From NCBI RefSeq assembly GCF_055900595.2, contig NZ_CM148325.1: 64,000 nt of DNA, one strand, 5' to 3'. Position 1 is the first letter of the stretch. Every line of letters starts with the position of its first letter. A model generated the notes under the pieces. The model was not told the DNA's origin, ran no database searches, and worked only from the letters and a program-made list of their open reading frames with translations. A program made the translations under genes and the position numbers. This document shows positions 11,737 through 61,014 of this stretch, in pieces.

Positions 11737-11749
11737 GTTGCAGTCACTG

Positions 11750-11850
11750 CTTGTTGTCGGATGCGGCGCGAGCGTCTTATCCGACCTACGCGAGCTGCTC
11801 ATTTTGTAGGCCTGATAAGACGCGGCAAGCGTCGCATCAGGCATGATGCA
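11750..11850. repeat. REP (repetitive extragenic palindromic) elements between araJ and mak
   Basis: Motifs gtcggatgcggcg...cttatccgacctac and gtaggcctgataagacgcg...gcatcaggc. Confidence 0.7.
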
Positions 11851-11868
11851 CCAATTGCCTGTTTTTTT

Positions 11869-12777
11869 TTACTCTTGTGGCCATAACCACGCAGCGCCGC
11901 GTACGCCGCTGGAATCACCATGTTTCGCCTTACGCACCGGCGTTTCACATTCGCCGCCGAAGACAAATTGTTTAATCAACTGCGGAACCGTTTGATATAA
12001 ACGATCTACATTGCTCATCCCGCCCCCCAACACAATCACATCCGGATCGAGAATATTCACGACATGTGCCAGCGATTTTGCCAGCCGCAGCTCGTAGCGA
12101 CGCAATGCCAGTTCCGCTACCGGATCGCTTTCTTCTACCAGGCGGATAATTTCACTGCCTTTCAGCGCATGTCCGCTCAAACGACGATAATCCGTCGCGA
12201 ATCCCGTGCCCGAAATAAAGGTTTCAATACAACCTTGTTTACCGCAATAACAAGGGACTTCCTCGCGATAACGCAGTTCATCTTCGTCCATCCACGGTAG
12301 CGGATTGTGTCCCCACTCGCCTGCCGTGCCATTGCCGCCGATATGCGCTCGACCATTGAACGCTACGCCCGCGCCGCATCCCGTGCCGATAATCACGGCA
12401 AATACCGTCTGCGCTCCCGCTGCTGCGCCATCTACCGCTTCCGAGACCGCCAGACAGTTGGCGTCATTTGCCAACCGCACTTCCCGTTGCAACCGCGCGC
12501 TTAAATCTTTATCAAATGGCTGACCGTTAAGCCAGGTTGAATTGGCATTTTTCACCACGCCAGTGTAAGGCGAAATCGAGCCTGGAATGCCCATGCCTAC
12601 CGTTCCGCGCTGCCCTGTCGCCTGCTCCGCCATATCAACCAACGTGGCGATCGTTTCGATGGTCTGATGGTAATCATCACGCGGCGTGGGCAGACGATGA
12701 CGATACAACTGCTCCCCTGCATCGCCCAGTGCAATCACTTCAGTTTTGGTGCCGCCTAAATCGATACCTATACGCAC
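11869..12777 (-). CDS. mak: fructokinase/manno(fructo)kinase Mak (ROK family), GTG start
   Basis: ORF track 11869..12915; Mak begins at [14 protein letters not shown], placing the start at a GTG codon (302 aa). Confidence 0.9.
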
Positions 12778-12901
12778 GGTACTCTCCTTATTTTTTTCAA
12801 TATCAATAGCGTAGAGACGGACAACCGGATTGGCAATGCAAGGCCGCCGACAATTCGTTATCATGCCCGCTAAATTTAACGACAAGGCCGTGGAAATTAT
12901 C

Positions 12902-13813
12902 ATGCTGTGGTTCAAAAATTTAATGGTTTACCGTCTTAGCCGCGAGATTTCGCTGCGTGCAGAAGAGATGGAAAAACAGCTAGCCTCGATGGCATTTACC
13001 CCATGCGGCAGCCAGGACATGGCGAAGATGGGCTGGGTTCCTCCGATGGGATCGCACAGCGATGCGTTAACGCACGTTGCCAATGGTCAAATTGTTATCT
13101 GCGCGCGCAAAGAAGAAAAAATCCTCCCGTCTCCGGTGATTAAACAGGCGCTGGAAGCAAAAATCGCCAAGCTGGAAGCGGAACAGGCGCGCAAGCTGAA
13201 GAAAACCGAAAAAGATTCGCTGAAAGATGAAGTGCTGCACTCTCTTCTGCCGCGCGCTTTCAGCCGTTTCAGCCAAACCATGATGTGGATCGACACGGTA
13301 AACGGTTTGATTATGGTGGACTGCGCCAGTGCCAAAAAAGCAGAAGATACGCTGGCATTACTGCGTAAAAGCCTGGGGTCGTTACCGGTTGTACCATTGA
13401 GCATGGAAAACCCGATTGAACTGACGCTGACCGAATGGGTACGCTCTGGTAGTGCGGCACAAGGCTTCCAGCTGCTTGATGAAGCCGAACTGAAATCGTT
13501 GCTGGAAGATGGCGGCGTGATCCGCGCGAAGAAACAAGATTTGACCAGCGAAGAAATCACCAACCACATTGAAGCAGGAAAAGTGGTGACTAAACTGGCG
13601 CTCGACTGGCAGCAGCGCATTCAGTTTGTGATGTGCGACGATGGTTCACTCAAGCGTCTGAAGTTCTGCGACGAGCTGCGCGATCAAAACGAAGATATCG
13701 ACCGTGAAGATTTTGCCCAACGTTTTGATGCCGATTTCATCCTGATGACCGGTGAACTGGCAGCATTAATCCAAAACCTGATCGAAGGATTAGGTGGCGA
13801 AGCACAACGTTAA
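12902..13813 (+). CDS. rdgC: recombination-associated protein RdgC
   Basis: ORF track 12830..13813; start placed at [16 protein letters not shown] (303 aa). Confidence 0.92.
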
Positions 13814-14345: not shown

Positions 14346-16630
14346 TGTTTTTCCTCAAGCCGGTTACGCGCTTCACTGCGAATTTGCCGCGTTGCCCCGG
14401 TTTTCACTAAATCACGTAACTGCGAAAGATCGGGCTGATCGACAAATAAGATTAATGATGGATCCTCTTTTAACCACGCCGTTTTCACATCGGCAGCCAA
14501 CTGTGGATTATTAATAGCCAGCGCCCGATCCTGTGACTCAGTCAATGTCGTTAACAAAGAGGCTGGGGTATGTACATTGCGCAACGCCGTCTGCCGCAAA
14601 TGATCATTGTGACTTTTCAGCAATCCGCACCACCATTCATCATCTGATTTATCTTTTATCGTATCCAGCTCCGCAAAAATATCGCTTTCCTCATGATTCC
14701 AGCGGTGTAATCCTCTTTCACTTTGTCTACGGGTGCTATTTTTCATACTGACAACAGACAACGCCCAGTCAGAGTTAAAACGATACTGTTGATCGAGTTT
14801 GTTGATAATTCCGGAGGGTAAATCTTTATTATCAAATAACTGGTTTCGCATCCGATAGCGGTATTCAGCAGGTAAATAAACCAGTAAATCGATAGCATTA
14901 TTAAGCATCTCTTCGTCAATAATACCATTATCAATCAGCGCCAGCTGTACTTCGTAGGCTTGCTCTTGATCTTCTTGCCGTTTACTCATCATTAATTTTA
15001 AGGTGTGTTGCCATAATTGTTTCTTATACTCCAGAGGTAACAATTTATCGCGTGCCAGCTCATACCAGATGCTGGGAATGTCATGCTGATTCAGTAGATA
15101 ACTAATCACTTCCTTCGAGGTCAGATAACGCATGCCGTCACGTAAATTGTGCACATCTTCTTTTGCCAAAGTCAGTTGACGCGACTCCGGCAAAGCGACC
15201 AATAACGCCTTCACGATATTTTTATTTTCTTTATTATCCAGATACATTTGTTCTGCGATACGTTCAACATCCTCTGTCCTCAGGGTCGCTGACAGTTGGG
15301 TGATTTTTAGTTCAGTAAGCGTCCGGGCTAATGCTTGACGAACTTTCAGCGATTTATCTTTACTCAACAACACCGCTTGTTGTGCGGTTAAATCGGTTCC
15401 GGTAATTCTTTCGCGTAACTCCAGATCTTCGCTATTTATCAATTCATCAACCACTGCAGTTGGAACCAGCCAGGCGTAATCGTAATGGCTGATTAATGTC
15501 TTGCGCACACTGAGAAAAGGGCTTTGACTTAACGATACAACAATATCAGGAGAAAGATTATCCTGTCTGGCCTGCTCCAGCTGTACGCTCTCGACGGGTA
15601 CAGACATTAATTTTTTATTCACTTCGGCGGATATATTGCTGTTTTTAACCAGTCCTCTGGCAACAGCTTCATCTTTAATTAATTCATCGGTAAGCAAATG
15701 CATGTGTTGAGCAGGCCAGGACTGCGCCATTGATTCACGCGTCTGGTCATCGGGGTGCTGTAACAGTTGCAGCATAACGGCGGTTGACAAACTTTCTATA
15801 TGAGTCAGAAAACGTGCCACCAGTGGATCTTCATGCTTTATTTTATCCGCAAGGAAATTATCGAGTTTCCCCGTTTCAATCCATTTTAATTTCTCATTAA
15901 TTTCAGGAGCAGCTTTATCTCGAAAAAGAGGTAAACCCTGAACGATATTGTCTACGACGCTATCATAGTCAGGATACGCATTGGAAATATTATCGGTTTC
16001 GATTTCACTATGATCATAAAGATTAGGCGTCACCAGTGAATAGGCTTTTTGAATATTCTCGTCCCAGTTATATTCTTCACCGCTTTCATCTTCATTGATA
16101 TAAAACTCAGCTTTGATGACCTCAAATTGCGTTGCTTTATCGGAAACAATAATGCCTCGCGCGTTAATTCCTTTCATCACTTCAAAGTTGTGATCATTAT
16201 AATCAGCATAAACTAAACCTTTTGCTGTCATCTGCCCTTTGACATACGCGAAATCATGATTAATAAAGTTATCGACAATAACATTACCTAATACAATCAG
16301 ATGACCATTACCTGACAGATAATCATCATAATCGCCGGAAATCGTTAAATTACCGTTCACCACCAGTTTATGCTGATTGCTGAAGTTAGTGGGTAATGAT
16401 AGGTCACCATTATGATAATACCAGCGGATATTATCTTTTAGCATATAAGCAGCTTCCATACTATCGTTGGTTGCCGCTTTAACCACGTTGCGCTCATCTG
16501 CCGTCATAAGATGAAAGTCAGAGGTGATAAGGTCCTCGCTACTGATCCACTCTGTGGCACATGCATTGCCAGTCATAAAAAATACGACCATACAGATGAC
16601 CAATATATTAATTCTATTCATAATCTTCAC
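14342..16630 (-). CDS. hypothetical secreted 762-aa repeat protein (Sec signal peptide; N-terminal Asn/Gly/Asp-rich beta-type region; C-terminal HEAT/LRV-like helical repeats)
   Basis: ORF track; N-terminus MKIMNRINILVICMVVFFMTGNACA has n/h/c regions of a Sec signal peptide; repeated motifs such as HLRQTALRNVHTPASLLTTLTES and DRALAINNPQLAADVKTAWLKEDPSL; locally AT-rich DNA. Confidence 0.75.
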   Translation of the reverse strand: MKIMNRINILVICMVVFFMTGNACATEWISSEDLITSDFHLMTADERNVVKAATNDSMEAAYMLKDNIRWYYHNGDLSLPTNFSNQHKLVVNGNLTISGDYDDYLSGNGHLIVLGNVIVDNFINHDFAYVKGQMTAKGLVYADYNDHNFEVMKGINARGIIVSDKATQFEVIKAEFYINEDESGEEYNWDENIQKAYSLVTPNLYDHSEIETDNISNAYPDYDSVVDNIVQGLPLFRDKAAPEINEKLKWIETGKLDNFLADKIKHEDPLVARFLTHIESLSTAVMLQLLQHPDDQTRESMAQSWPAQHMHLLTDELIKDEAVARGLVKNSNISAEVNKKLMSVPVESVQLEQARQDNLSPDIVVSLSQSPFLSVRKTLISHYDYAWLVPTAVVDELINSEDLELRERITGTDLTAQQAVLLSKDKSLKVRQALARTLTELKITQLSATLRTEDVERIAEQMYLDNKENKNIVKALLVALPESRQLTLAKEDVHNLRDGMRYLTSKEVISYLLNQHDIPSIWYELARDKLLPLEYKKQLWQHTLKLMMSKRQEDQEQAYEVQLALIDNGIIDEEMLNNAIDLLVYLPAEYRYRMRNQLFDNKDLPSGIINKLDQQYRFNSDWALSVVSMKNSTRRQSERGLHRWNHEESDIFAELDTIKDKSDDEWWCGLLKSHNDHLRQTALRNVHTPASLLTTLTESQDRALAINNPQLAADVKTAWLKEDPSLILFVDQPDLSQLRDLVKTGATRQIRSEARNRLEEKQ

Positions 16631-30951: not shown

Positions 30952-33912
<2,961 letters not shown>

Positions 33913-34437
33913 TTGTCATCCCTCCTCAGGGACGTAATAAGTTGATCCATCAATTATCAATGCATAGAAAACATATTATGTTTCGCGTTTACGATTATGC
34001 GGCGTTATAGAGGAATGGTTCAATTATTCTTTCCCCTAAGTCCGATTGCGGACATATATAAAGCACGTGAACACACACACAGAAAGAAATAACAAAAACA
34101 CAATATTTCAATACGTTAATGAAAGCGTTAATTTTAAAACATAGACCATGAAAATATAAAACAACTAAAACAGACAAATAATCTATCAATAACCAATGAA
34201 CTTTACGTTATTCACTTTTTGAAAACGTCACCAAATCCCCAAAAACAATAATCTATAGCTATAAATAAAAATTAAAAATATTTTCAATGAATATAAATTT
34301 ATTGCTATTTCTATTACAAAGATGTCCTGACCTCTCATTCATTCTCTTCTTATCAACATCACGACAACTTTCGTAAAACATCCCCACCCTGCTTCAGGTA
34401 TACTATGCTCCTCGATTCCACAAACATCAGGCAGACC

Positions 34438-35412
34438 ATGACAGACCTAATCCAACGCCCTCGTCGCCTGCGCAAATCTCCTGCGCTGCGCGCTATGTTT
34501 GAAGAGACAACACTTAGCCTTAACGACCTGGTGTTGCCGATCTTTGTTGAAGAAGAAATTGACGACTACAAAGCCGTTGAAGCCATGCCAGGCGTGATGC
34601 GCATTCCAGAGAAACATCTGGCACGCGAAATTGAACGCATCGCCAACGCCGGTATTCGTTCCGTGATGACTTTCGGCATCTCTCACCATACCGATGAAAC
34701 CGGCAGCGATGCCTGGCGGGAAGATGGTCTGGTGGCGCGTATGTCGCGCATCTGTAAACAGACCGTGCCAGAAATGATCGTCATGTCAGACACCTGCTTC
34801 TGTGAATACACTTCTCACGGTCACTGCGGTGTGCTGTGTGAGCATGGCGTGGACAACGACGCGACCCTGGAAAATTTAGGCAAGCAGGCCGTGGTTGCAG
34901 CTGCTGCAGGTGCAGACTTCATCGCCCCTTCCGCCGCAATGGATGGCCAGGTACAAGCGATTCGCCAGGCGCTGGACGCTGCGGGCTTTAAAGATACGGC
35001 GATTATGTCGTATTCGACCAAGTTCGCCTCCTCCTTTTATGGCCCGTTCCGTGAAGCTGCCGGAAGCGCATTAAAAGGCGACCGCAAAAGCTATCAGATG
35101 AACCCAATGAACCGTCGTGAGGCGATTCGTGAGTCACTGCTGGATGAAGCCCAGGGCGCAGACTGCCTGATGGTTAAACCAGCCGGAGCGTACCTCGACA
35201 TCGTGCGTGAGCTGCGTGAGCGTACTGAATTGCCGATTGGTGCGTATCAGGTGAGCGGTGAGTACGCGATGATTAAGTTCGCTGCGCTGGCGGGTGCTAT
35301 AGATGAAGAAAAAGTGGTGCTCGAAAGTTTAGGTTCGATTAAGCGTGCGGGTGCGGATCTGATTTTCAGCTACTTTGCGCTGGATCTGGCTGAGAAGAAG
35401 ATTCTGCGTTAA
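34438..35412 (+). CDS. hemB: porphobilinogen synthase HemB
   Basis: ORF track 34405..35412; start placed at [18 protein letters not shown] (324 aa). Confidence 0.95.
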
Positions 35413-36303: not shown

Positions 36304-37127
36304 TGTACTTCTCCATGCCAGGGCGTCAGGCGGCGCTGTAACGCGCGCAGACCCAGTTCTAAAAGAAAGGCGATAATCGCAATCACCGCGATCCCCGCCA
36401 GCACCACGTCAGTCGCGAGAAATTCACCCGCTGACTGGACCATAAAACCCAAACCGCGCGTCGCGGCAATCAACTCCGCCGCCACCAGGGTAGACCAGCC
36501 CACACCCAGACCAATGCGTAATCCAGTGAGAATTTCCGGCAGCGCACCGGGCAAAATAACAAACCACAGTACCTGTGTGCGGCTGGCCCCCAGCGACTGA
36601 GCGGCACGAATGCGAACCTGCTGCGCGCTTTTCACCCCCGCCAGCGCCGACATCGCCACAGGTGCAAAAATCGCTAAATAGATCAGTAAGATCTTCGAGG
36701 TTTCACCAATACCAAACCAGATCACCATCAGCGGCAAATAAGCCAGCGGCGGCACCGGACGATAAAGCTCGATTATCGGATCCAGAATGCCGCGCACCGT
36801 CGGGCTTAGCCCCATGGCGATCCCGACCGGAATACCGATCAACACCGCCGCGAGTAGCGCCAGCAAAATGCGCGTCAGGCTGGCTGCCAGATGCTGCCAC
36901 AGCGTGGCATCCATAAATCCCTGCGGCCCGGCAATGGTGAGCAGTTTTGCCAGTACCTGTTGCGGCGGCGGCAGAAACAGCGGGCTAATCAGTTGCAGCG
37001 CCGCCACCGCCCACCATACCGTGAGTAAAACCGCTAACGTGCCAATGCTTAAGGTCACCTGACGCGAGAGCGGCCAGCGCCATTTCAGCCGATGCGAATG
37101 CAGTTTTTCATTAATGAGCACACTCAT
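36300..37127 (-). CDS. tauC: taurine ABC transporter permease TauC
   Basis: ORF track, 275 aa; 4-bp overlaps with tauB and tauD. Confidence 0.93.
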
Positions 37128-37891
37128 GAGAACGCCTCCCGTTGCTCAAATACGCGGCTTAAAACATATTCGCGCATGGCGATGAATTGTGAATCGGACT
37201 TGATGCTGCGGCTCGACTCTCCCGCAACAAAGCGGCGAGCAAAGTTGAGCGGCAGCCGTTCCAGCACACGACCTGGACCAGGCGACAGCAAAACCAGTTC
37301 GGTTGCCATAAACACTGCTTCTTCTATATCGTGGGTAATCAACAGCACCTGCTTTCCCGTCTCCTGCCAGAGTTTCAGCAGCAGGGTTTGCATCTGGTCG
37401 CGGGTGAAGGCGTCCAGCGCACCAAACGGTTCGTCGAGTAATAACAGCTGGGGATTTGCCGCCAGCGCGCGGGCAATCCCTACCCGCTGACGTTGACCGC
37501 CGGAAAGCTGCCAGATATAGCGTTTTTCTGCGCCTTCCAGCCCCACTTTTTTCAGCATCTGGTGCGCGATTTCCAGGCGCTGTACTTTCTCTACACCTGC
37601 CAGTTGCAGGCCGAATGCCACGTTGTCTACCACATTACGCCACGGCAACAGCCCTTCATTCTGAAAAACCACGCCCCGCTCTGCGCCCGGTCCCTCAATG
37701 CACTTACCCGCCAGTTGAATGCTGCCATGCTGATAAGGCACAAAACCGGCAATCAGATTCAGCAAGGTGGTTTTGCCGCAGCCAGACGGTCCCAGAACCA
37801 CCAGAAGCTCGCCGCTTTCCAGCGTCAGGTTGATATCTTCCAACGCCGGTTTGCCGCCATAATCGGCGTAAAGATGAGAGATTTGCAGCAT
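37124..37891 (-). CDS. tauB: taurine ABC transporter ATPase TauB
   Basis: ORF track, 255 aa; Walker [10 protein letters not shown], signature LSGGQRQR. Confidence 0.95.
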
Positions 37892-37903
37892 CTGCGCCTC
37901 CTT

Positions 37904-38866
37904 TTATTGCACGAAGCGCGAGGTCACGTACTGGCTGTAATCATTCGCCACGGCAGGGACTTTGCCCTGATCTTTCAAAAACTGCGCGGTATCGATGATC
38001 GCTTTATTCACCGGTCCGGTCAGTTCTGCCGTTTGCTGCTGCGGTGTCAGATAGGTATTCCCCTTCACAAGCCCCGGAACGTCACCTTCCGGCACACCGC
38101 TTAAACGCGCCAGTTTGCTGATGTTTTCCGGCTGTTTCAGCCACGCGTCTGGGTTAGCAATGTACGGTTGCTGAGCATCGATGGCGCTTTTAGCGAACGC
38201 TTTCACGACTTCAGGATGTTTCTCGGCAAAATCTTTCCGCACGACCCAGACGTCCAGTGTCGGCGCGCCCCACTGCCCGACCTGTTCGGAATCAGTCAAC
38301 ACCTTGCCGTCTTTTTCCAGTGCGTTAACCGCCGGTGCCCAGACATAAGCACCATCAATGTCTCCCCGCTGCCAGGCGGCGATAATCGCAGGCGGCTGCA
38401 GGTTCACAATCTCCACTTGCCCGGGTTTAATGCCCCAGTGTTTCAGCGCCGCCAGCAAGCTGTAATGCGTGGTGGAGATAAACGGTACGGCAATGCGTTT
38501 GCCAATGAGATCTTCGGGTTTGCTGATGGTTTTCTTCACCACCAGCGCTTCGGAGTTACCCAGTTTTGACGCCAGCAAGAAGACCTCAATCGGCACCTGT
38601 TGGCTGGCTGCAACCGCTAATGGGCTGGAACCGAGGTTGCCGATTTGCACATCGCCAGAAGCCAGTGCCCGCACGATGCTGGCCCCGCTGTCAAACTTAC
38701 GCCAGTCCACGGTCGCCCCGCTCTCTTTAGCAAAGGTGTTATCGGCCTGAGCCACTTTCGCCGGTTCGGCGGAAGTTTGATAGGCCACGGTGACGTTCAC
38801 TGCCTGCACCTGAAAAGCGATGAATACCAGTGCGGCAAGAAGTGTGTTACGCGATGAAATTGCCAT
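37904..38866 (-). CDS. tauA: taurine-binding periplasmic protein TauA
   Basis: ORF track, 320 aa, MAISSRNTLLAALVFIAFQVQA signal peptide. Confidence 0.95.
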   Translation of the reverse strand: MAISSRNTLLAALVFIAFQVQAVNVTVAYQTSAEPAKVAQADNTFAKESGATVDWRKFDSGASIVRALASGDVQIGNLGSSPLAVAASQQVPIEVFLLASKLGNSEALVVKKTISKPEDLIGKRIAVPFISTTHYSLLAALKHWGIKPGQVEIVNLQPPAIIAAWQRGDIDGAYVWAPAVNALEKDGKVLTDSEQVGQWGAPTLDVWVVRKDFAEKHPEVVKAFAKSAIDAQQPYIANPDAWLKQPENISKLARLSGVPEGDVPGLVKGNTYLTPQQQTAELTGPVNKAIIDTAQFLKDQGKVPAVANDYSQYVTSRFVQ

Positions 38867-39168
38867 GATTGTCTGCTCCCCTGTCTTGTTATGGGAGCAG
38901 TATTTCGTTGCGGGTCAGTTTGATAAAGGAATTAAAACGTCTTGTTAAGAACAAAGCGTTTTTAGAAAAAAACTGGCAATGGTTAGCGAGTTTACGCATT
39001 TTGCAGCTTGGGCGAATGTAGCATGCCGATTCACAAACCAGATCAGATGTTCGCTCTCCGGCAAATTATTGCCATTTTGTTACATCCATTCCATATCTGT
39101 CGCTGGTAGATTGCCAGCGCCGCGCCGTGATGCATGATAGGAGAATGAGATAATAAGAGAAGAAAAGT

Positions 39169-39798
39169 ATGATTAGGGTTGTGCTGGTGGATGACCATGT
39201 GGTGGTGCGCTCTGGCTTCGCACAGTTACTCTCTCTGGAAGACGATCTGGAGGTCATTGGTCAGTACAGTTGTGCCGCGCAGGCATGGTCGGCATTAACT
39301 CATAATGACGTTAATGTTGCCGTCATTGATATCGCCATGCCGGACGAAAATGGCCTCAGTCTGCTTAAGCGTCTGCGTGCACAAAAACCGCAATTCCGCG
39401 CCATTATTCTTAGCATTTATGACACGCCAACCTTTGTACAAAGCGCTCTGGATGCTGGTGCCAGCGGCTATTTGACCAAACGCTGTGGGCCGGAAGAGTT
39501 AGTGCAGGCGGTGCGCTCGGTCGGGATGGGCGGGCATTATCTCTGCGCCGATGCAATTCGGGCTTTACGCGGCGGCGGGCAACCCGCCCAGGCGTTGGAA
39601 ATTCTCACCCCACGAGAACGTGAAGTGTTTGATTTATTAGTCAAAGGCGACAGTGTCAAAGAGATCGCCTTTAAGCTCGAACTCAGCCATAAAACGGTAC
39701 ATGTACATCGCGCCAACGTGCTGGGAAAACTGAACTGTCATAGCACCATTGAGCTGGTGCATTTTGCACTCAATCACCATCTGCTGGCGGGGCATTAA
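39169..39798 (+). CDS. UhpA-like NarL/FixJ-family response regulator (paralog, not the canonical uhpA)
   Basis: ORF track, 209 aa; receiver domain with conserved Asp residues and C-terminal LuxR-type HTH; close resemblance to UhpA from memory. Confidence 0.85.
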   Translation: MIRVVLVDDHVVVRSGFAQLLSLEDDLEVIGQYSCAAQAWSALTHNDVNVAVIDIAMPDENGLSLLKRLRAQKPQFRAIILSIYDTPTFVQSALDAGASGYLTKRCGPEELVQAVRSVGMGGHYLCADAIRALRGGGQPAQALEILTPREREVFDLLVKGDSVKEIAFKLELSHKTVHVHRANVLGKLNCHSTIELVHFALNHHLLAGH

Positions 39799-41339
39799 TG
39801 TCGCGTAACCTTCGTCATTGGGTGATTTCGCTGTTTATTGTGCTGGCCTGGGGAAGCGGCTGGCTGATGTTGTGGACGCTCAGCTTTTATCTGACCAATA
39901 ACGGTCAACAGGCAGTGTTATTTCTGCCGCACGGAGTTTACCTCGCTCTTCTTATTTTGCTCTCTCGCCGTTACTGGCCTGCGTTGGTGCTCCCCCCTTT
40001 GCTGATGATGTTCTGGCTGCACAGCGAGCAACTGTTGAACGGCTATCTCATGCTGGCAACGCCGGTTATTAGCCTGCTTCCTGCCATCCTTGCACAAAAC
40101 GTCTGGCACCGTTTTCCACTTTACTGGCAGCGTCTGACGTTGCTGTTAGCCTCAGTAACAGCAGCTTCATTGCTGAATACAGCCATGCTAACCCCTTTTA
40201 TGTCAGGCCCAATAATGCTGCCCGGTCTGACCTCATTTACCGGCGGCGTATTGTTGACGCCGTTTGTCTATCTCATCTTTGAGTTTCTGCGCCAGCAGCA
40301 TCGCTATCAGCTTCTGAGACTCGATACGCATAATCCCCCCTTGCGAACCTCTTTAATCATCTGGTGTAGCCTATTTTTTATTATTGGTATCGGCACCCAG
40401 ATGGTGTTGTCGCCTGAAATCGAACGCCTGCTGCTGATCGTGGTATTTCTACCCAATGTGGTCATGGCCTGGAAATTTGGCTGGCAAGGTGGCGTACTCT
40501 CGGGGCTTTTGGGCAGCATGATGATCACTATTGCCCGCCAGATTGGCGTGGGCTTTAGTAACCTGGTGGAACTGGAGATTTTTCTCGCAACCCAGGCATT
40601 GCTGGGAATTGGCCTGGGCATTGCCATCAGTCGCCAGCAACATCTGGCGCTAAACCTGCATCATTACCGTCAGCGACTGGAGGCAGAACTGGCAGCACGG
40701 CGGGCATTGGCTGAAAAGCTGATCCACACCGAGGAAGACACGCGTAAAAGCCTGGCTCGCGAGCTGCACGACGAAATCGGTCAGAACATTACCGCCATTC
40801 AGATCCAGTCGCAACTGGTGACGCGGGCACGCGATCCGGCGCAAGTTCATTCCGCAGCCAGCCAAATCAACGAACTCGCCCGCCGCATTCATCTCTCCAC
40901 CCGCCAGTTGCTGCGCCAGTTGCGGCCACCCGCGCTTGATGAACTGACATTCCGCGAAGCATTACTTCATCTGATTAATGAATTTGCCTTTAGTGAACGC
41001 GGCATTCATTGCCAGTTTACCTATCAACTAACCACCACGCCAGAAAACGAAACGGTTCGCTTTACACTGTATCGGTTATTGCAGGAGTTACTCAATAACG
41101 TCTGTAAACACGCCGAAGCCAGCGAAGTGACGATTATTCTGCGCCAGCAGGGAGAGATATTGCACCTGGAGGTCAGCGACAACGGTATAGGAATCGCCAG
41201 CGGGAAAATGACCGGATTTGGCATTCAGGGGATGCGTGAACGCGTCAGTGCCCTGGGCGGCGACTTAACGCTCGAAAAACATAACGGTACGCGAGTAATT
41301 GTTAACCTGCCCACATTTTTGCAACAAATCGCCGGATAA
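39798..41339 (+). CDS. UhpB-like sensor histidine kinase (multi-pass membrane N-domain + HisKA_3/HATPase)
   Basis: ORF track, 513 aa; H-box LARELHDEIGQ; 1-nt start/stop overlap (TAATG) with the upstream regulator gene. Confidence 0.85.
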   Translation: MSRNLRHWVISLFIVLAWGSGWLMLWTLSFYLTNNGQQAVLFLPHGVYLALLILLSRRYWPALVLPPLLMMFWLHSEQLLNGYLMLATPVISLLPAILAQNVWHRFPLYWQRLTLLLASVTAASLLNTAMLTPFMSGPIMLPGLTSFTGGVLLTPFVYLIFEFLRQQHRYQLLRLDTHNPPLRTSLIIWCSLFFIIGIGTQMVLSPEIERLLLIVVFLPNVVMAWKFGWQGGVLSGLLGSMMITIARQIGVGFSNLVELEIFLATQALLGIGLGIAISRQQHLALNLHHYRQRLEAELAARRALAEKLIHTEEDTRKSLARELHDEIGQNITAIQIQSQLVTRARDPAQVHSAASQINELARRIHLSTRQLLRQLRPPALDELTFREALLHLINEFAFSERGIHCQFTYQLTTTPENETVRFTLYRLLQELLNNVCKHAEASEVTIILRQQGEILHLEVSDNGIGIASGKMTGFGIQGMRERVSALGGDLTLEKHNGTRVIVNLPTFLQQIAG

Positions 41340-41411
41340 CCAGGAAAAAGTCTTAGGCATCCCGGATTTTCTCTCATCCTCTTTCACTTTCATTTTCATA
41401 TAGTCAGCAAC

Positions 41412-42728
41412 ATGGAGACGACCATGCACGCACGTTCAGCGAGAGAGATTAATCAATGCTACCGGACATTACGTCCGCGATTGCTGATGTGCATGATTAT
41501 TGGCTACGCCGCATTTTATCTGACGCGAAAAAGCGTGAATTACGTCCTTCCGGCGCTGCAAACCGACCTCGGACTGGATAAAGGCGACATTGGCCTGCTG
41601 GGTTCGCTGTTTTATCTCAGCTACGGATTGTCGAAATTTACCGCCGGACTGTGGCATGACAGCCACGGACAACGCGGTTTTATGGGCGTCGGCTTGTTCG
41701 CCACTGGGCTATTGAACATGGTGTTTGCCTTTGGCGAATCACTTACGCTTCTGCTTGTGGTCTGGACACTGAACGGTTTTTTTCAGGGCTGGGGATGGCC
41801 ACCGTGTGCCCGCTTACTGACCCATTGGTACTCCCGTAATGAACGTGGTTTCTGGTGGGGCTGCTGGAATATGTCGATCAACATTGGCGGAGCGATTATT
41901 CCGCTGATTAGCGCCTTTGCCGCCCACTGGTGGGGCTGGCAGGCCGCGATGCTGACACCGGGGATTATCAGCATGGCATTAGGGATCTGGTTAACGCTAC
42001 AGCTTAAAGGCACACCCCAGGAAGAGGGATTACCGACGGTGGGTCAGTGGCGTCACGATCCGCTGGAATTACGTCAGGAACAACAAAGTCCGCCGATGGG
42101 GCTGTGGCAAATGTTGCGAACCACAATGCTGCAAAATCCGATGATCTGGCTGCTGGGTGTCTCTTATGTACTGGTTTATGTGATCCGGATTGCGCTAAAC
42201 GACTGGGGCAATATCTGGCTGACGGAAAGCCACGGCGTCAACCTACTCAGCGCCAACGCCACGGTAATGCTGTTTGAAGTGGGCGGCTTACTCGGCGCGT
42301 TATTTGCCGGATGGGGTTCGGATTTGCTGTTTAGCGGGCAGCGAGCCCCCATGATTTTGCTGTTTACCCTTGGGTTGATGGTTTCGGTCGCTGCACTCTG
42401 GTTGGCACCGGTTCATCACTATGCCCTTCTGGCTGTGTGCTTTTTTACTGTGGGCTTTTTTGTCTTTGGCCCGCAAATGCTGATTGGACTTGCGGCAGTG
42501 GAATGTGGACACAAAGCTGCGGCGGGTTCAATTACCGGATTTCTCGGCCTGTTCGCCTATCTCGGTGCGGCGCTGGCAGGCTGGCCGTTGTCGCTGGTTA
42601 TCGAACGCTACGGCTGGTCAGGAATGTTCAGTTTACTCTCGGTCGCCGCAGTACTTATGGGTTTACTGCTGATGCCGTTACTGATGGCGGGCATCACCAC
42701 CACTCACGCTCGAAGGATAAAACAATGA
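41412..42728 (+). CDS. UhpC-like MFS sugar-phosphate sensor/transporter (organophosphate:Pi antiporter family)
   Basis: ORF track, 438 aa; strong resemblance to UhpC/UhpT (e.g. FFQGWGWPPCARLLTHWYSRNERG). Confidence 0.85.
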   Translation: METTMHARSAREINQCYRTLRPRLLMCMIIGYAAFYLTRKSVNYVLPALQTDLGLDKGDIGLLGSLFYLSYGLSKFTAGLWHDSHGQRGFMGVGLFATGLLNMVFAFGESLTLLLVVWTLNGFFQGWGWPPCARLLTHWYSRNERGFWWGCWNMSINIGGAIIPLISAFAAHWWGWQAAMLTPGIISMALGIWLTLQLKGTPQEEGLPTVGQWRHDPLELRQEQQSPPMGLWQMLRTTMLQNPMIWLLGVSYVLVYVIRIALNDWGNIWLTESHGVNLLSANATVMLFEVGGLLGALFAGWGSDLLFSGQRAPMILLFTLGLMVSVAALWLAPVHHYALLAVCFFTVGFFVFGPQMLIGLAAVECGHKAAAGSITGFLGLFAYLGAALAGWPLSLVIERYGWSGMFSLLSVAAVLMGLLLMPLLMAGITTTHARRIKQ

Positions 42729-43756
42729 AAATGCCCCTTACCTCTACTCTGATTGCTTCTGCCGTTGCGCTGGCAACCTTAACGGGTGCCGCACAAGCGA
42801 AAGGTCGACTGGTGGTCTATTGCAGCGCCACTAATGAAATGTGTGAGACCGAAACCAAAGCGTTTGGCGAGAAATATGATGTGAAAACCTCGTTTATCCG
42901 CAACGGCTCCGGTAGCACCCTGGCAAAAGTCGATGCTGAAAAGAAAAACCCACAGGCTGACGTCTGGTACGGCGGCACCTTAGACCCGCAGTCGCAGGCC
43001 GGCGAGATGGGCCTGTTACAGGCATATAAATCGCCTAACCTTGAACAGATCATGGAAAAATTCCGCGATCCGGCAAAAGTGAAAGGAAACCTTTCCTCCG
43101 CCGTTTATGTGGGGATCCTCGGGTTTGGCGTCAACACAGAGCGTCTGAAAGAGAAAAACCTGCCTGTGCCGAAGTGCTGGAAAGATCTCACCAAACCTGA
43201 ATATAAAGGCGAAATTCAGATTGCCGATCCACAAAGTTCCGGTACCGCCTACACCGCGCTGGCTACCTTTGCGCAGCTGTGGGGGGAAGATCAGGCCTTT
43301 GATTATCTAAAACAACTTAACACCAACGTCTCCCAGTACACCAAATCAGGCATTGCCCCGGCACGTAACGCCGCCCGCGGCGAAACGGCGATTGGTATTG
43401 GCTTCCTGCATGACTACTCGCTGGAAAAAGAACAGGGTGCGCCGCTGGAGTTGATTTCCCCGTGTGAAGGTACGGGCTACGAAATTGGCGGCGTCAGCAT
43501 TCTGAAAGGCGCGCGCAACCTCGACAACGCCAAACTGTTTGTGGACTGGGTATTATCAAAAGAAGCTCAGGAACTGGCGTGGAAGAAAGGGAAGTCTTAT
43601 CAGATCCTGACCAATACCACCGCCGAAACGTCGCCAAATTCGCTGAAGCTCGACGACCTGAAATTAATCAACTACGACATGGATAAATACGGTTCCACGG
43701 ATGTTCGTAAGGCATTGATTAATAAATGGGTCAGCGAAGTGAAGATGGGTAAATAA
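42725..43756 (+). CDS. afuA: AfuA/FbpA-type periplasmic substrate-binding protein of an ABC importer
   Basis: ORF track 42437..43756; start placed at MKMPLTSTLIASAVALATLTGAAQA (signal peptide); ATGA overlap with the preceding gene. Confidence 0.85.
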   Translation: MKMPLTSTLIASAVALATLTGAAQAKGRLVVYCSATNEMCETETKAFGEKYDVKTSFIRNGSGSTLAKVDAEKKNPQADVWYGGTLDPQSQAGEMGLLQAYKSPNLEQIMEKFRDPAKVKGNLSSAVYVGILGFGVNTERLKEKNLPVPKCWKDLTKPEYKGEIQIADPQSSGTAYTALATFAQLWGEDQAFDYLKQLNTNVSQYTKSGIAPARNAARGETAIGIGFLHDYSLEKEQGAPLELISPCEGTGYEIGGVSILKGARNLDNAKLFVDWVLSKEAQELAWKKGKSYQILTNTTAETSPNSLKLDDLKLINYDMDKYGSTDVRKALINKWVSEVKMGK

Positions 43757-43824
43757 ACCCGCATTGCGTGCATTTGCCGGGCGCAGCACAAACGCCTGCC
43801 CCGGCCAACCATACCGGAACTGCT

Positions 43825-45903
43825 ATGTCACAGACACTTGCACTCCATCCCGTGAAAAAGCGGGATGCGATTTTCCTTTGGGTTTTGCTGGGCTGGCTGG
43901 CATTTATCCTGTTGCCGAGCTGGAGCCTCGATTATGGCCTGCTGGAGTCCACGAGTGATGAGATCCTCGAGGCTTATGGCTGGTCGCATTTTAATATCAG
44001 CTGGCTGTGGTATTTATTACCGAGTCTGTTGCTGGTTCGTCCGTTTCGTGAGGCCACACGCGAACAGCGTAGTCGTCATTATTTTGATGCCAGTTGGGCA
44101 TTGCTCTGTATGGCGTTTATCGTCATCAGCGCCACCGTGGCTGGACGCGGTTTAGGCTACGCCGCCATCGTGCTGTTTATCGAATTAAGCGCGATAATGA
44201 CGCTGGCCTTAACCCGCCTCGAATGGCTGGGTGGCGACCGCTTTGTGATCGGCTCGCTGATTGCGATTGTGGCGCTGATTGGCATTTTTATCGTCTGGCC
44301 GAGCATCGCCATTTTTATCCCGATGTTCACCAACGACGCGGGAGAGTTCGCCCCACTGGCGTTTATGAATGTGCTCTCGCAGGCCCATATCATTCAGGTG
44401 ATCGTCAACTCTATCGTCTTATCGATAGCGGTGGGTATTGGCTGTACTTTCTTCGGTCTGGTGCTGGCGATATATACCACGCGCATCGCTAAACGCAGCG
44501 CCGTAATCGGCCGCATCTTTTCCATTCTGCCAATTGTCACGCCACCGTTTGTGGTCGGCTTAGGCGTTACGCTCATGATGGGGCGCTCCGGCTACATAAC
44601 GGAATTTATGGTGGAGTGGTTTGGGCTGACCAACACCAACTGGCTGTATGGTTTTACCGGGATCTGGCTGGCACAGGTCCTGGCATTTACGCCAATGGCT
44701 TTTATGATCCTCGATGGGGCCATTAAAACCATTCATCCCTCGCTGGAAGAAGCCTCCTACACCCTGCGCGCCAGCCGCTGGCAAACCTTTAACGGTGTGT
44801 TTGTGCCGTTGTTAAAGCCCGCGCTTGCCAATGCCTTTTTAATCGTTGTGGTGCAGTCACTGGCTGACTTCAGTAACCCGCTGGTGCTTGGCGGCAACTT
44901 CGACGTACTGGCGACGCAAATTTACTTCTACATTACCGGCTCGCAGCTGGATTATCAGGCCGCCAGCACCCTTGGCGCTTTCCTGCTGCTGTTCTCGCTA
45001 CTGGTGTTCTGCGTCCAGTATATGTGGATTGGTAAACGCTCTTACGTCACGGTTTCCGGAAAGTCCTACCGCGGCGATGTCCAGCCACTACCGGTCACCC
45101 TGGTGTGGAGCGTGGTCGCCATACTTGCGATATGGATTGCCTTTAACGCCCTGCTCTATGGCAGCATTTTCTACGGCAGCTTCACTGTGAACTGGGGCGT
45201 TGACTACACCCTGACGCTGGATAACTTTATCAAGTTATTTGGTCAGGGGATGAGCGACGGCGCGTGGCCTTCACTGTTAGATACCTTGCTCTACGCCGGG
45301 ATTGCCGCCCCCATTACCGCTATCTTTGGCCTGCTCATCGCCTGGGTGGTGGTGCGCCAACAATTCAAAGGCAAAAAGACCATAGAGTTCACCACCATGT
45401 TGTGCTTTGCCGTACCGGGTACAGTGGCGGGTGTCTCGTATATTCTTGCCTTTAATAGCGCCCCGGTCTATCTCACCGGAACGGCAGCAATTGTGATTAT
45501 TTCGATGGTGATGCGCAACGTTCCGGTGGGTATTCGCGCCGGGATTGCAGGTCTGGGGCAGATCGACAAATCGCTGGATGAAGCCTCACTTAGCCTGCGT
45601 GCGGGTTCCCTGCGAACCATTACGCACATTTTACTGCCGTTGTTACGCCCAGCTATTCTCTCGGCCCTGATTTACAGCTTTGTGCGGGCTATCACGACGG
45701 TCAGCGCCATCGTCTTTCTCGTCACGCCGGACACACGCGTGGCAACCGCCTACATCCTTAACCGCGTAGAAGACGGCGAATATGGCGTAGCCATCGCCTA
45801 CGGTTCGATTCTGATCGTGGTGATGCTGGCGATTATTTTCCTCTTTGACTGGCTGATCGGTGAAGCACGTATTTCCCGTTCTAAAGCCAAAAACCAGGCG
45901 TAA
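43825..45903 (+). CDS. afuB: AfuB/FbpB-type fused two-domain ABC permease
   Basis: ORF track 43768..45903; start placed at MSQTLALHP (692 aa); many transmembrane segments. Confidence 0.85.
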
Positions 45904-45914
45904 TGGAGCGCACT

Positions 45915-46961
45915 ATGAGTCAGAAAAATTTTGTGGAACTGCGCAACGTCACTAAACGATTCGGCAGTAATAGGGTTATCGACAATATCAATCTCACCAT
46001 CCCACAAGGGCAAATGGTGACGCTGCTCGGTCCTTCCGGATGCGGCAAAACCACCATTCTGCGTCTGGTTGCCGGGCTGGAAAAACCGAGCGAAGGGCAA
46101 ATTTTTATAGATGGCGAAGATGTCACGCATCGTTCCATTCAGCAACGCGATATCTGCATGGTGTTTCAGTCATACGCTCTGTTCCCACATATGTCGCTGG
46201 GCGAAAACGTTGGCTATGGGCTGAAAATGCTTGGCGTGTCGCGTAGTGAAGTGAAGCAGCGGGTGAAAGATGCGCTAGCAATGGTGGATCTGGAAGGATT
46301 CGAAGACCGCTATGTCGACCAGATTTCCGGTGGTCAGCAACAGCGTGTGGCTCTGGCCCGTGCGTTGATCCTTAAGCCTAAAGTGCTGCTGTTTGATGAG
46401 CCGTTAAGTAACCTCGATGCCAACCTGCGTCGCAGCATGCGCGATAAAATCCGCGAGCTGCAAAAGCAATTTAACATCACTTCGCTCTATGTGACTCACG
46501 ATCAAAGTGAAGCTTTCGCGGTGTCCGACACCGTGTTGGTGATGAATAAAGGTCACATCATGCAGATTGGTTCACCGCAGGATCTCTATCGTCAGCCCGC
46601 CTCCCGCTTTATGGCAAGTTTTATGGGCGACGCCAACCTGTTCCCGGCGAACTTTAGCGAAGAGTATGTCGATATCTACGGTTATCGCCTGCCGCGCGCG
46701 GCGCATTTCCCGGCGCAAGGTAGCGGCACCGTCGGCGTTCGCCCGGAAGCCATCACCTTAAGCAATCACGGCGAAGAGAGTCAGCGTTGTGTTATTCGCC
46801 ATGTCGCCTACATGGGGCCGCAGTACGAAGTGACCGTAGAATGGCATGGTCAGGAGATTTTATTGCAAGTCAACGCCACCCGTTTACAGCCCGATATTGG
46901 TGAGCACTATTACCTCGAAATCCATCCTTACGGGATGTTTGTTTTAGCGGATGCGGCATAA
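45915..46961 (+). CDS. afuC: AfuC/FbpC-type ABC ATPase
   Basis: ORF track 45903..46961; start at [12 protein letters not shown]; Walker [10 protein letters not shown], signature ISGGQQQRV. Confidence 0.88.
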
Positions 46962-46973
46962 AAATAGCACATA

Positions 46974-47003
46974 AACGGTCCCAACCTGTCTTGAGGGACC
47001 GTT
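46974..47003 (+). terminator. possible afuC terminator hairpin (aacggtccc ... gggaccgtt)
   Basis: 9-bp perfect inverted repeat 13 bp after the afuC stop; trailing T-run is weak. Confidence 0.45.
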
Positions 47004-47042
47004 CACCTGTTTAGACGTCGGACAACAATTATTCTCAGGTGT

Positions 47043-47097
47043 TATATACTATAGGGGGGTATGCATTGACATATAGCATACCCCCCTATAGTATATT
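47043..47097 (+). promoter_or_regulatory. frmR promoter/operator: long perfect palindrome atatactataggggggtatgc ... gcatacccccctatagtatat
   Basis: About 21-bp inverted-repeat arms around a central attgacatata, immediately upstream of frmR; consistent with a FrmR operator. Confidence 0.7.
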
Positions 47098-47120
47098 GCG
47101 TGCAGATGATGAGGTGCGAA

Positions 47121-47396
47121 ATGCCCAGTACTCCGGAAGAGAAGAAAAAGGTCCTTACTCGAGTTCGTCGTATTCGGGGGCAAATTGATGCTCTGGAACG
47201 GTCGCTGGAGGGTGATGCCGAATGCCGTGCCATACTCCAACAGATCGCTGCCGTTCGGGGCGCGGCTAACGGGCTGATGGCAGAAGTGCTTGAAAGCCAT
47301 ATCCGGGAAACGTTTGACCGAAATGACTGCTACAGCCGCGAAGTCAGCCAATCCGTTGACGACACTATTGAACTGGTTCGTGCCTATCTTAAATAG
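47121..47396 (+). CDS. frmR: formaldehyde-responsive repressor FrmR
   Basis: ORF track 47100..47396; start placed at [21 protein letters not shown] (91 aa). Confidence 0.92.
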
Positions 47397-47400
47397 CTGA

Positions 47401-48540
<1,140 letters not shown>

Positions 48541-59150: not shown

Positions 59151-59264
59151 TTGCGCCAATGTGTAATTTGGCCCATTCTCATCGTTATTCGCCCATTTGC
59201 CCACATGCACAGTACGGGCTGCACGCTACGCTAATGCCATCAATACTGTGATGTGGAGCAAATC

Positions 59265-60041
59265 ATGAAAATTACTCAAATTCGTAATGCCACCCAAATT
59301 ATCCAATACGCTGGCAAAACATTTCTTATTGACCCGTTACTCGCGCCTAAAGGAAGTTATCCGGGTTTTGCCGGAACGGCACGCGCAGAAATCCGCAATC
59401 CAACGGTAGAATTACCGTGCGATTTAACAACGTTACTCAACGTTGACGCCCTAATAGTGACCCATTTGCATGAAGATCATTGGGACGAAACAGCCTCCCG
59501 CGTCGTCCCCAAAGATAAACAGATTTATGTGCAAAATGAGCAAGATGCTGAATCACTGCATAAACAAGGATTTACGCATCTTACCGTACTTGCCGACGAG
59601 ACTAAATTTGGCGATATTACTCTGCATAAAACGACAGGGCAGCACGGCTCCGATCGCACCTATGCAGACCCGGCTATGGCGAAGCGTTTAGGCGCAGCCT
59701 GCGGCGTTGTTTTCCAGCACCCGACAGAGAAAACGCTCTATCTGGCTGGCGATACCCTCTGGCGTGATGACGTCGAGGCTACAATGCTAACTTTCCAACC
59801 AGAAGTGGTGGTGTTGAATGCCGGATTTGCGCATGTTCTGGGGCATGGCGCGATAATTATGGGAGCTGAAGATATTCTCAAAACACATTTTACCCTGCCA
59901 GAAGCGCAAATTGTCGCGACACATATGGAGGCCGTAAACCACTGTTTGCTGACGCGTGATGCGCTCAAGGAATACGCCAGAGATAATCAAATTATCGAAT
60001 TTGTGAACGTACCAGAAGATGGTGAAACGTTGACATTCTAA
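59265..60041 (+). CDS. metallo-beta-lactamase-fold hydrolase (HxHxDH motif THLHEDHWD), function unknown
   Basis: ORF track 59253..60041; start placed at MKITQIRNATQ with a GGAG RBS upstream; motif seen directly. Confidence 0.8.
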   Translation: MKITQIRNATQIIQYAGKTFLIDPLLAPKGSYPGFAGTARAEIRNPTVELPCDLTTLLNVDALIVTHLHEDHWDETASRVVPKDKQIYVQNEQDAESLHKQGFTHLTVLADETKFGDITLHKTTGQHGSDRTYADPAMAKRLGAACGVVFQHPTEKTLYLAGDTLWRDDVEATMLTFQPEVVVLNAGFAHVLGHGAIIMGAEDILKTHFTLPEAQIVATHMEAVNHCLLTRDALKEYARDNQIIEFVNVPEDGETLTF

Positions 60042-60060
60042 TTCGGAGATAAAGAGTGTT

Positions 60061-61014
60061 ATGCGCCCGCTAACTGTTGCCATTATCGCCGTTGCCGGTT
60101 TTAGTCCTTTTCACCTTTCCGTACCGTTTATCGTGTTTAGCGAAAAAATGGCGGAGAAAAAACGCTTTCATGTAATTATCTGCGCTGAAAAGCCGGGAAA
60201 TGTGGACTCTGCCGATGGGTTTTCCGTAACCGCCACCCATGACTATACGGCAGTCATCCAGGCGGATATTGTGATAATTCCTTACTGGGGAACAATTACA
60301 CAAAAACCGCCACAAAAACTGCTGGAAGCCTTAACGATCGCACGAGATAACGGGGCACAGATTGTCGGGCTTTGCCTGGGCACGTTTGTGCTCGGCTATG
60401 CAGGTTTACTGAACAATAAGCGTGCTGCCACGCACTGGGAGTTCGAGCGTGAATTTCAGGCACGTTTTCCACAAACACATCTGGATATTAACGCGTTGTA
60501 TGTAGACGATGATGGCATTATTACCTCTGCCGGTACTGCCGCGGCGCTGGATTGCTGTTTGTATATTGTTCGGCAACATTTTGGCAGCGACTATGCTAAC
60601 CATATTGCCCGACGGATGGTCGTACCGCCATATCGCACCGGCGGTCAGGCGCAGTTTATAGAGCAACCGGTGCCGAAAAATACCCATGATGAACGCATTA
60701 ACCTCCTGCTGGATTACCTGCGGCAAAACATTGCGCAACAGCATGATCTCGACTCGCTGGCTCAGCGAGTAATGATGAGTCGCCGCACACTAACCCGTCA
60801 TTTTATGAAAGCGACCGGTTCGAGTATCGCCGAATGGCTCATCACTGAACGCTTACGCCGTAGCCAGGAACTGTTGGGATCCAGTCAGTTGCCCGTTGAG
60901 CGGATAGCGGCTGAGGTGGGTTTTCTCTCACCTGTGACCTGGCGTCAGCATTTTAAATCTCACTTCGGCGTCAGCCCCGCAGAATGGCGCAAAACCTTTC
61001 GTGGTATGGCATGA
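60061..61014 (+). CDS. GlxA-type regulator: N-terminal DJ-1/PfpI-like domain + C-terminal AraC-family HTH
   Basis: ORF track, 317 aa; C-terminal AraC signature (...SPVTWRQHFKSHFGVSPAEWRK); RBS ggagataaag upstream. Confidence 0.85.
   Translation: MRPLTVAIIAVAGFSPFHLSVPFIVFSEKMAEKKRFHVIICAEKPGNVDSADGFSVTATHDYTAVIQADIVIIPYWGTITQKPPQKLLEALTIARDNGAQIVGLCLGTFVLGYAGLLNNKRAATHWEFEREFQARFPQTHLDINALYVDDDGIITSAGTAAALDCCLYIVRQHFGSDYANHIARRMVVPPYRTGGQAQFIEQPVPKNTHDERINLLLDYLRQNIAQQHDLDSLAQRVMMSRRTLTRHFMKATGSSIAEWLITERLRRSQELLGSSQLPVERIAAEVGFLSPVTWRQHFKSHFGVSPAEWRKTFRGMA

Follow-up and report, generated by a model that had tools for sequence, protein, structure and literature searches.

A predicted hexose-phosphate sensing and import cassette between tauA and frmR, corresponding to Escherichia coli O-island OI-20

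The AfuABC family of ATP-binding cassette (ABC) importers was reported by Sit et al. (2015; PMC4546632) to be misannotated as ferric transporters. For the systems of Actinobacillus pleuropneumoniae and Citrobacter rodentium, that study described nanomolar binding of glucose 6-phosphate (G6P), fructose 6-phosphate (F6P) and sedoheptulose 7-phosphate, together with rescue of a uhpT deletion on G6P and F6P. It also placed afuABC on the O-island OI-20 together with FusKR and described the island as conserved in C. rodentium. The present analysis concerns a locus of this type in a 64,000-nucleotide stretch of DNA (NCBI RefSeq assembly GCF_055900595.2, contig NZ_CM148325.1), referred to here as the window, in which positions 39169-46961 between tauA and frmR are filled by six long, intact plus-strand open reading frames (ORFs), as seen in the ORF list and in the annotated record. 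An earlier reading of the DNA sequence (the original prediction) had named them as a UhpA-like response regulator, a UhpB-like kinase, a UhpC-like sensor of the major facilitator superfamily (MFS), AfuA, AfuB and AfuC. All six were found complete, the interval being the outer limits of the coding sequences, and the names hold, with 49%, 33% (over the full length) and 53% identity to UhpA, UhpB and UhpC of E. coli K-12 and 77-79% identity of AfuA to solved AfuA structures. By gene content and position the island is already known rather than new: OI-20 of enterohaemorrhagic E. coli (EHEC) O157:H7 (fusR Z0463, fusK Z0462, z0461, afuABC) has the same genes in the same order at the same tauA-frmR site, with protein identities of 95-99% to the window (FusR 96.2%, FusK 95.3%, Z0461 99.1%, AfuA 98.5%, AfuB 98.1%, AfuC 99.1%). 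Since OI-20 carries afuABC and FusKR, the "UhpA-like" and "UhpB-like" genes are FusR and FusK; both the named island and the published fucose identity of its sensor, FusKR, had been missed in the original prediction.

Other described systems resemble the cassette to different degrees. In Vibrio cholerae, VCA0685-VCA0687 are an established hexose-6-phosphate uptake system, and VCA0682-VCA0684 reportedly induce these uptake genes on hexose 6-phosphate. VCA0682-VCA0687 have the six-gene order and the domain architectures of the window, and a palindrome, CTAGGAAATATTCCTAG, lies at the kinase/uhpC junction. The Vibrio regulator and kinase are nearer to FusR and FusK (63% and 42% identity) than to K-12 UhpA and UhpB (51% and 39%), and AfuA, AfuB and AfuC are 67-77% identical; the Vibrio locus differs in a 112-bp gap between the MFS and binding-protein genes, which overlap by 4 bp in the window. 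K-12 UhpABC-UhpT shares with the cassette a regulator-kinase-sensor-transporter order on one strand, a MASE1 kinase and a UhpC-type sensor, but identity between the cassette triad and the K-12 Uhp proteins is only 33-53%. The cassette transporter is of the ATP-driven ABC type, whereas that of K-12 is the phosphate antiporter UhpT, and, relative to the sensor gene, the candidate regulated promoter is upstream in the cassette and downstream in K-12 Uhp. AfuABC of A. pleuropneumoniae (4R72-4R75) likewise combines a fused permease with an ATPase and has an AfuA 77% identical to that of the window and the same ligand pocket. In Gallibacterium anatis (its locus 8001-13118), the one Pasteurellaceae locus examined, afuABC occurs without a Uhp-like triad, and a class-B acid phosphatase gene follows directly after afuC.

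Taken whole, the OI-20 cassette is probably a hexose-phosphate sensing triad joined to the AfuABC importer, with z0461-afuABC under its control. External hexose phosphate would be bound by the UhpC-type sensor, which would then switch the MASE1 kinase FusK. Phosphorylated FusR would bind an inverted repeat of 17 bp that lies just beyond the kinase gene on its downstream side, and would activate an otherwise weak promoter, from which the uhpC-like gene and afuABC would be transcribed as one unit. AfuA would capture periplasmic sugar phosphate and AfuBC would import it without phosphate exchange. The published EHEC role of FusKR in fucose utilization and in control of the enterocyte effacement locus (LEE) would be a further output of this system or an indirect one. 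Synteny, the repeat, translational coupling and the arginines of the sensor give strong comparative backing to the proposal that the triad induces afuABC in response to sugar phosphate.

The whole cassette is conserved as a single unit of six closely packed genes. A scan with an AfuA profile, using one genome per species, yielded 80 loci in about 27 genera of Enterobacterales, among them Citrobacter, Enterobacter, Klebsiella, Raoultella, Serratia, Yersinia, Rahnella, Buttiauxella, Erwinia and Pantoea. The six genes were present, colinear and on one strand in every one of these loci with enough flanking sequence, and gene content and order are unchanged in the V. cholerae/metoecus locus. Within the Enterobacterales the uhpC-like gene and afuA are mostly -4 to +15 bp apart, which leaves no room for a promoter, while the spacer between the kinase and uhpC-like genes is constant at 76-96 bp. 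The kinase start in the window overlaps the regulator stop codon by 1 bp, and the uhpC-like stop codon and the afuA ATG overlap by 4 bp (ATGA, read directly in the sequence). All six genes are under strong purifying selection (dN/dS 0.02-0.07 against the O157:H7 alleles).

The best NCBIfam matches of the triad are UhpA, UhpB and UhpC. The MFS protein, which is only 29% identical to UhpT, scores above the cut-off of the UhpC subfamily model (586 against 564 bits). It is a member of the organophosphate:phosphate antiporter family, in which GlpT and the human G6P exchanger SLC37A4 are the solved proteins closest to it, and it keeps both organophosphate-binding arginines of the family, in the motifs LTRKS and VIRIA. 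The kinase has the architecture of UhpB, with Pfam matches to MASE1 (2.6e-60), HisKA_3 and HATPase_c and without a periplasmic sensing domain.

The spacer between the kinase and uhpC-like genes carries three elements that are conserved across genera: the inverted repeat, the block TCTCATCC and a -10 hexamer; in Vibrio, conservation was noted for the inverted repeat alone. The repeat follows directly after the kinase stop codon, with its centre about 63 bp upstream of the predicted transcription start. Its pattern, CYAGGAA-N4-TCYTRG, was found at this junction in nearly every cassette locus and is the sole match per locus, except for one extra in Entomohabitans teleogrylli; with one mismatch allowed, the window holds 1 match against 0.23 expected. 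The repeat is a perfect palindrome in Erwinia/Pantoea (CCAGGAATAATTCCTGG) and in Vibrio. The block TCTCATCC is at least 90% conserved in 23 genera, though the kinase drops to 55% amino acid identity, and it may be a second, promoter-proximal contact of the regulator. No recognisable -35 hexamer was found beside TATAGT. The spacer would be the activator-dependent promoter of the z0461-afuABC transcript. The K-12 uhpT promoter has a similar layout, with CCAGG-N5-CCTGG followed by TCTCAGGC 19 nt upstream of TACAAT, and a block TCTCAnnC 19 nt before the -10 hexamer is common to that promoter and the cassette spacer. However, the cassette half-sites are separated by N7 rather than by the N5 of uhpT, and the cassette repeat lies about one helical turn further upstream. 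The predicted operator fits a dimer of the NarL/UhpA family and would differ from the UhpA site sufficiently to keep the two systems insulated from each other.

No second operator was found near the fusR promoter, even with three mismatches allowed. Two other interpretations of the spacer were rejected by eye. In the region of TCTCATCC, read as a Pho box, the first heptamer alone is conserved and the spacing is wrong. The repeat, read as an intrinsic terminator of the kinase gene, has a 5-bp stem, an AT-rich centre, a "loop" that is itself conserved and palindromic, and no direct U-run. In E. teleogrylli the second copy of the repeat is perfect (its locus 15540-15556) and lies 181 bp upstream of an ORF for a class-A (PhoN-like) acid phosphatase (14613-15359, minus strand), which hints at a periplasmic phosphatase as a possible member of the regulon.

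The published model, taken as the whole story, assigns the locus differently: FusK senses L-fucose directly, FusR represses the LEE, the fuc genes and z0461, Z0461 aids fucose import, and afuABC is an independent neighbour. Reviews and a transcriptome paper give this account in the passages that summarise Pacheco et al. (2012), and later papers, where they mention it, label Z0461 a "fucose transporter (optimal import)". The genes fusK, fusR and z0461 rise along with the fuc genes in bovine intestinal contents, and the window kinase and regulator are orthologous to Z0462 and Z0463 at the OI-20 site (95.3% and 96.2%). As a complete account, the model nevertheless seems unlikely to us. Z0461, with its family membership, its match to the UhpC model and both arginines, is not of the fucose-permease type; the z0461 stop codon overlaps the afuA start; and the unit, together with the operator-like repeat, is conserved in about 27 genera of Enterobacterales and in Vibrio. 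Most of these genera (Erwinia, Pantoea, Rahnella, Buttiauxella, Serratia) are, to our knowledge, without the LEE and without a mucosal fucose niche. Within UhpABC, it is UhpC that detects the ligand, not the kinase. If UhpC-type proteins do the sensing here, an assay of the kinase only would be blind to the G6P signal and would miss it. Hexose phosphate would be the more economical primary signal, because of the V. cholerae precedent, with its reported induction by hexose 6-phosphate, and because sensing would be UhpC-based rather than kinase-based. Fucose sensing is not disproved by the comparative results.

Several points weigh against the proposal of a triad that responds to hexose phosphate. 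Pacheco et al. (2012), as summarised in other papers, reported autophosphorylation of FusK in response to L-fucose, and described FusR, in its phosphorylated form, as a repressor and not an activator of ler, the fuc genes and z0461, with binding of FusR to the ler promoter. The best NCBIfam matches of the regulator and kinase are UhpA and UhpB, at 193 bits against an equivalog cut-off of 258 bits and at 373 against 408 bits; neither cut-off is reached, and the two proteins are paralogues of UhpA and UhpB rather than UhpA and UhpB proper. The sensor has the motif WNMSINIGG, with Ile where GlpT (His165), UhpT and K-12 UhpC have a conserved His; the form WN(M/T)SIN(I/L)GG, with this Ile, is common to all cassette sensor orthologues, and the ligand could therefore differ from that of UhpC. 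The E. coli repeat is imperfect in its right half, and the promoter and operator are proposed from conservation and geometry only. No experiment showing induction of afuABC by G6P in E. coli or Citrobacter was found in the open literature. In the open-access literature no test of G6P on FusK, FusR or Z0461 was found either, and FusK and UhpB are both mentioned only in Sit et al. (2015). In the supplement tables of an EHEC RNA-seq study, in which co-regulation of afu and z0461 was sought, Z0457 is frmR and not afuC, and Z0458 and Z0460 have no entry among the rows listed.

With these points set against the comparative evidence, a fuller form of the hexose-phosphate proposal is put forward more tentatively. 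FusR/FusK/Z0461 may primarily be the Enterobacterales orthologue of the UhpABC-type hexose-phosphate sensor of Vibrio, acting through CYAGGAA-N4-TCYTRG near -63, in parallel to UhpABC-UhpT and insulated from it by the half-site spacing. The fucose and LEE effects would then be lineage-specific or indirect, and the cassette would be an old resident that most E. coli have lost.

The importer is described by gene order and family matches as an operon of a binding protein, a fused two-domain permease and an ATPase, as in AfuABC importers. AfuB holds two permease stretches in one protein (NCBIfam), and its Vibrio orthologue matches BPD_transp_1. Against solved structures, AfuA gave E = 3e-170 with A. 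pleuropneumoniae AfuA (4R72-4R75) and E = 2.5e-173 with 8X1A. When aligned with 4R72 and 8X1A, it is identical at 19 of the 19 published ligand-contact residues (list from PMC8427247). The phosphate cradle is conserved (Ser37, Gly38, Thr60, Ser148, Gly149, Thr150 and Gly185 in A. pleuropneumoniae numbering), as are ring contacts including Tyr103 and Gln269, and the sugar motif His205/Asp206/Glu229 is invariant, corresponding to His229, Asp230 and Glu253 of the window protein. Mutation of the phosphate pair Ser37/Thr150 and of the sugar triad His205/Asp206/Glu229 abolishes G6P binding. Orthology to proteins that have been solved and assayed, together with a pocket identical to theirs, shows AfuA to be a sugar-phosphate binding protein.

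A different organophosphate, such as pyridoxal 5-phosphate or 2-aminoethylphosphonate, would be a very improbable substrate and signal. The vitamin-B6 paralogue P5PA matches AfuA at E = 3e-110, the best NCBIfam models for AfuA and AfuB are of the PhnS2 and PhnU2 types (below their cut-offs), and the His-to-Ile change in the sensor leaves room for an altered ligand. P5PA, however, has Ala at the positions of both Asp206 and Glu229, the acidic residues that bind the sugar and that AfuA retains, and the C. rodentium orthologue binds G6P and rescues a uhpT deletion on G6P and F6P (PMC4546632). In alignments with ferric-binding proteins, the Tyr-Tyr of 8K7N falls on AfuA Leu228-His229, and that of 1Y4T sits in an insertion that is absent from AfuA, just before Ile225. 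In this family the iron ligands are taken to be a Tyr-Tyr pair plus His/Glu or further Tyr, and their positions in 1Y4T and 8K7N are assigned accordingly. A ferric-iron uptake system is suggested by the persisting legacy names 'ferric ABC transporter ATP-binding protein' and 'Iron(III) ABC transporter' and by distant homology to the bona fide ferric-binding proteins FbpA, HitA and SfuA (just E = 1e-9 to 1e-12), but is excluded for practical purposes, because AfuA matches G6P-bound structures at E = 1e-170, keeps all 19 contacts and is without the ferric di-tyrosine. The name fbpC given to afuC, with the product 'ferric ABC transporter ATP-binding protein', by the Prokaryotic Genome Annotation Pipeline (PGAP) is a wrong legacy name. 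The preference for sugar phosphate over iron in the original prediction is upheld by the experiments of Sit et al. on relatives and by a pocket that is not of the ferric type.

The tauA-frmR site was described in the original prediction as variable between strains, with yaiO, yaiP, yaiS and an IS2 copy in K-12, and both statements proved correct: the K-12 order is frmR, yaiO, yaiX::IS2A, yaiP, yaiS, tauA. In a set of 5,426 complete E. coli genomes, 518 had the cassette, many of these being outside the EHEC group, and 4,818 were of the yaiP-yaiS type; the few others include empty sites. The empty site of E. coli 20AR0734 is a tauA-frmR spacer of 305 bp; its homology to the window stops at 39004 and restarts at 47029, and in the comparison of K-12 with the window the left break lies at 38904/38905 (blastn). 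The empty allele contains a 75-bp filler (1704-1778 of its locus), which is REP-like (GCCTGATGTGACGCTCACGCCTCTTATCATGCCTAC...). Only 81 of the 518 carriers have a cassette at least 95% identical to that of the window. There are two allele classes in E. coli (dS 0.20-0.29), and relative to O157:H7 the window cassette is of a divergent class, with 5.6% nucleotide difference. Carriers include O55:H7, O145, O157:H16 and O169:H41, from dog, chicken, frog, meat and wastewater. In Citrobacter, Enterobacter, the Klebsiella oxytoca group, Raoultella, Leclercia and others, the cassette lies beside tauA in divergent orientation. Because the cassette adjoins tauA in many genera, its position there appears to be old; most E. 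coli would have replaced or lost it, and it would not be an EHEC-specific acquisition. Reviews, in the passages that concern FusKR, describe it as acquired recently and horizontally by EHEC, "possibly from E. faecalis", and as present in few EHEC serotypes only; the 518 carriers and the spread over many genera disagree with an EHEC-restricted distribution.

The two flanks of the island differ in their divergence from O157:H7. The tauA/tauB segment (window 37124-38866) shows 5.6-6.2% nucleotide difference, as large as that of the island, and frmR/frmA (window 47121-48540) only 1.1-2.6%; the island allele therefore seems to be linked with the tau side as one old haplotype. E. coli O16:H6 CU37RT-2 carries the same six-gene cassette, 97.8% identical, at another chromosomal site (its locus 2631-11887), directly downstream of a tyrosine-type integrase beside ulaE/ulaF and with transposase remnants beyond afuC. 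The integrase site in this strain means that in some lineages an integrative island carries the cassette. On plasmids the cassette was not found; a K-12-type afuBC remnant alone occurs there. This piece, consisting only of afuC and the 3' end of afuB and 85% identical to window 45555-46961, is present in about 460 genomes of the K-12 type (at about 277 kb in K-12) and on 32 plasmids including F', and represents what is left of a second afu locus that has diverged.

The features of the locus are listed in Table 1. Window positions 38800-47500 are 100% identical to NZ_CP098223.1 (E. coli Z0117EC0005, a canine, non-EHEC isolate), the only record with full identity, and the gene coordinates are those of the PGAP annotation of that record, mapped onto the window.

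Table 1. Coordinates of the genes and of the known or predicted elements at the tauA-frmR locus of the window
Feature	Position	Strand	Basis or remark
tauA	37904-38866	-	Left neighbour of the island
Variable segment (island)	39005-47028	.	blastn of empty-site E. coli 20AR0734 against the window
Response regulator, REC + LuxR/GerE helix-turn-helix; EHEC FusR (Z0463) orthologue, UhpA paralogue	39169-39798	+	96.2% amino acid identity to O157:H7
Membrane histidine kinase, MASE1 + HisKA_3 + HATPase_c; FusK (Z0462) orthologue, UhpB paralogue	39798-41339	+	95.3% identity to O157
17-bp inverted repeat CCAGGAAAAAGTCTTAG, candidate response-regulator site	41340-41356	+	Conservation at kinase/uhpC junction
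Conserved block TCTCATCC, 19 nt upstream of -10-like hexamer	41372-41379	+	At least 90% conserved in 23 genera
-10-like hexamer TATAGT (predicted)	41399-41404	+	Conserved as TA.A.TC across genera
Shine-Dalgarno GGAG	41414-41417	+	Conserved across genera
UhpC-type MFS sensor, Z0461 orthologue	41424-42728	+	NCBIfam UhpC model; 99.1% identity to O157
AfuA, periplasmic hexose/heptose-phosphate binding protein, signal peptide MKMPLTSTLIASAVALATLTGAAQA	42725-43756	+	Homology to solved AfuA
AfuB, fused two-domain ABC permease, 692 aa	43825-45903	+	NCBIfam; 98.1% identity to O157
AfuC, ABC ATPase	45915-46961	+	NCBIfam NF008513, 697 bits against 496-bit cut-off; 99.1% identity to O157
9-bp GC-rich hairpin after afuC, possible terminator	46974-47003	+	RNA fold
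frmR	47121-47396	+	Right neighbour of the island

PGAP places the start of the uhpC-like gene at 41412 in O157:H7 and, in the window-identical record, at 41424. The ATG at 41424 is likely to be the start, because the GGAG before it is conserved, and the ATG at 41412 is unconserved and would contain the Shine-Dalgarno sequence within the gene. The hairpin after afuC has a centroid energy of -15 kcal/mol and a z-score of -1.69 with no U-run behind it, which is weak evidence for a terminator. Simple promoter and terminator scans gave sites no commoner than in shuffled sequence, Rfam gave no known RNA element over window 38000-48000, and the PADLOC defence models gave generic helix-turn-helix and ABC-ATPase matches only. 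Just upstream of frmR lies a near-perfect long palindrome, TATATACTATAGGGGGGTATGC...GCATACCCCCCTATAGTATAT (window 47044-47096), which overlaps the best sigma-70-like promoter match and is presumably the operator and promoter of frmRAB.

Elsewhere in the window, NZ_CP098223.1 differs by an IS1-bounded resistance segment, about 11.7 kb long and with tet(A), intI1-aadA1 and TnAs3, between an autotransporter gene and hemB, which is absent from the window (window 30964-33912, ~33990). Relative to the same record, a divergent stretch inside the 982-aa autotransporter ORF occupies window 32233-33829. The sequence just upstream of hemB (window 34000-34499), at the point of the IS1-bounded insertion in the related strain, is sharply AT-rich (35% G+C). 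Genes for a metallo-hydrolase of the metallo-beta-lactamase fold and for a GlxA-family regulator lie between mhpR and lacI (window 59253-61014), which we take to be adjacent in K-12; this may be another small accessory insert.

The annotation of the locus can be regarded as settled: it corresponds to OI-20, the "ferric" and fbpC names are wrong, and at least three allelic states exist at tauA-frmR. The EHEC field describes FusKR as a horizontally acquired, EHEC-restricted, virulence-tuning fucose sensor, yet about 10% of complete E. coli genomes, from many pathotypes and hosts, have the cassette, as do dozens of enterobacterial genera and Vibrio. If hexose phosphate is the primary signal, models of EHEC gut sensing and fucose-signalling therapies would need to be revised. 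E. coli that bear the cassette would then have a second, phosphate-sparing route for G6P, which would bear on competition in the gut and possibly on uhpT-linked fosfomycin phenotypes.

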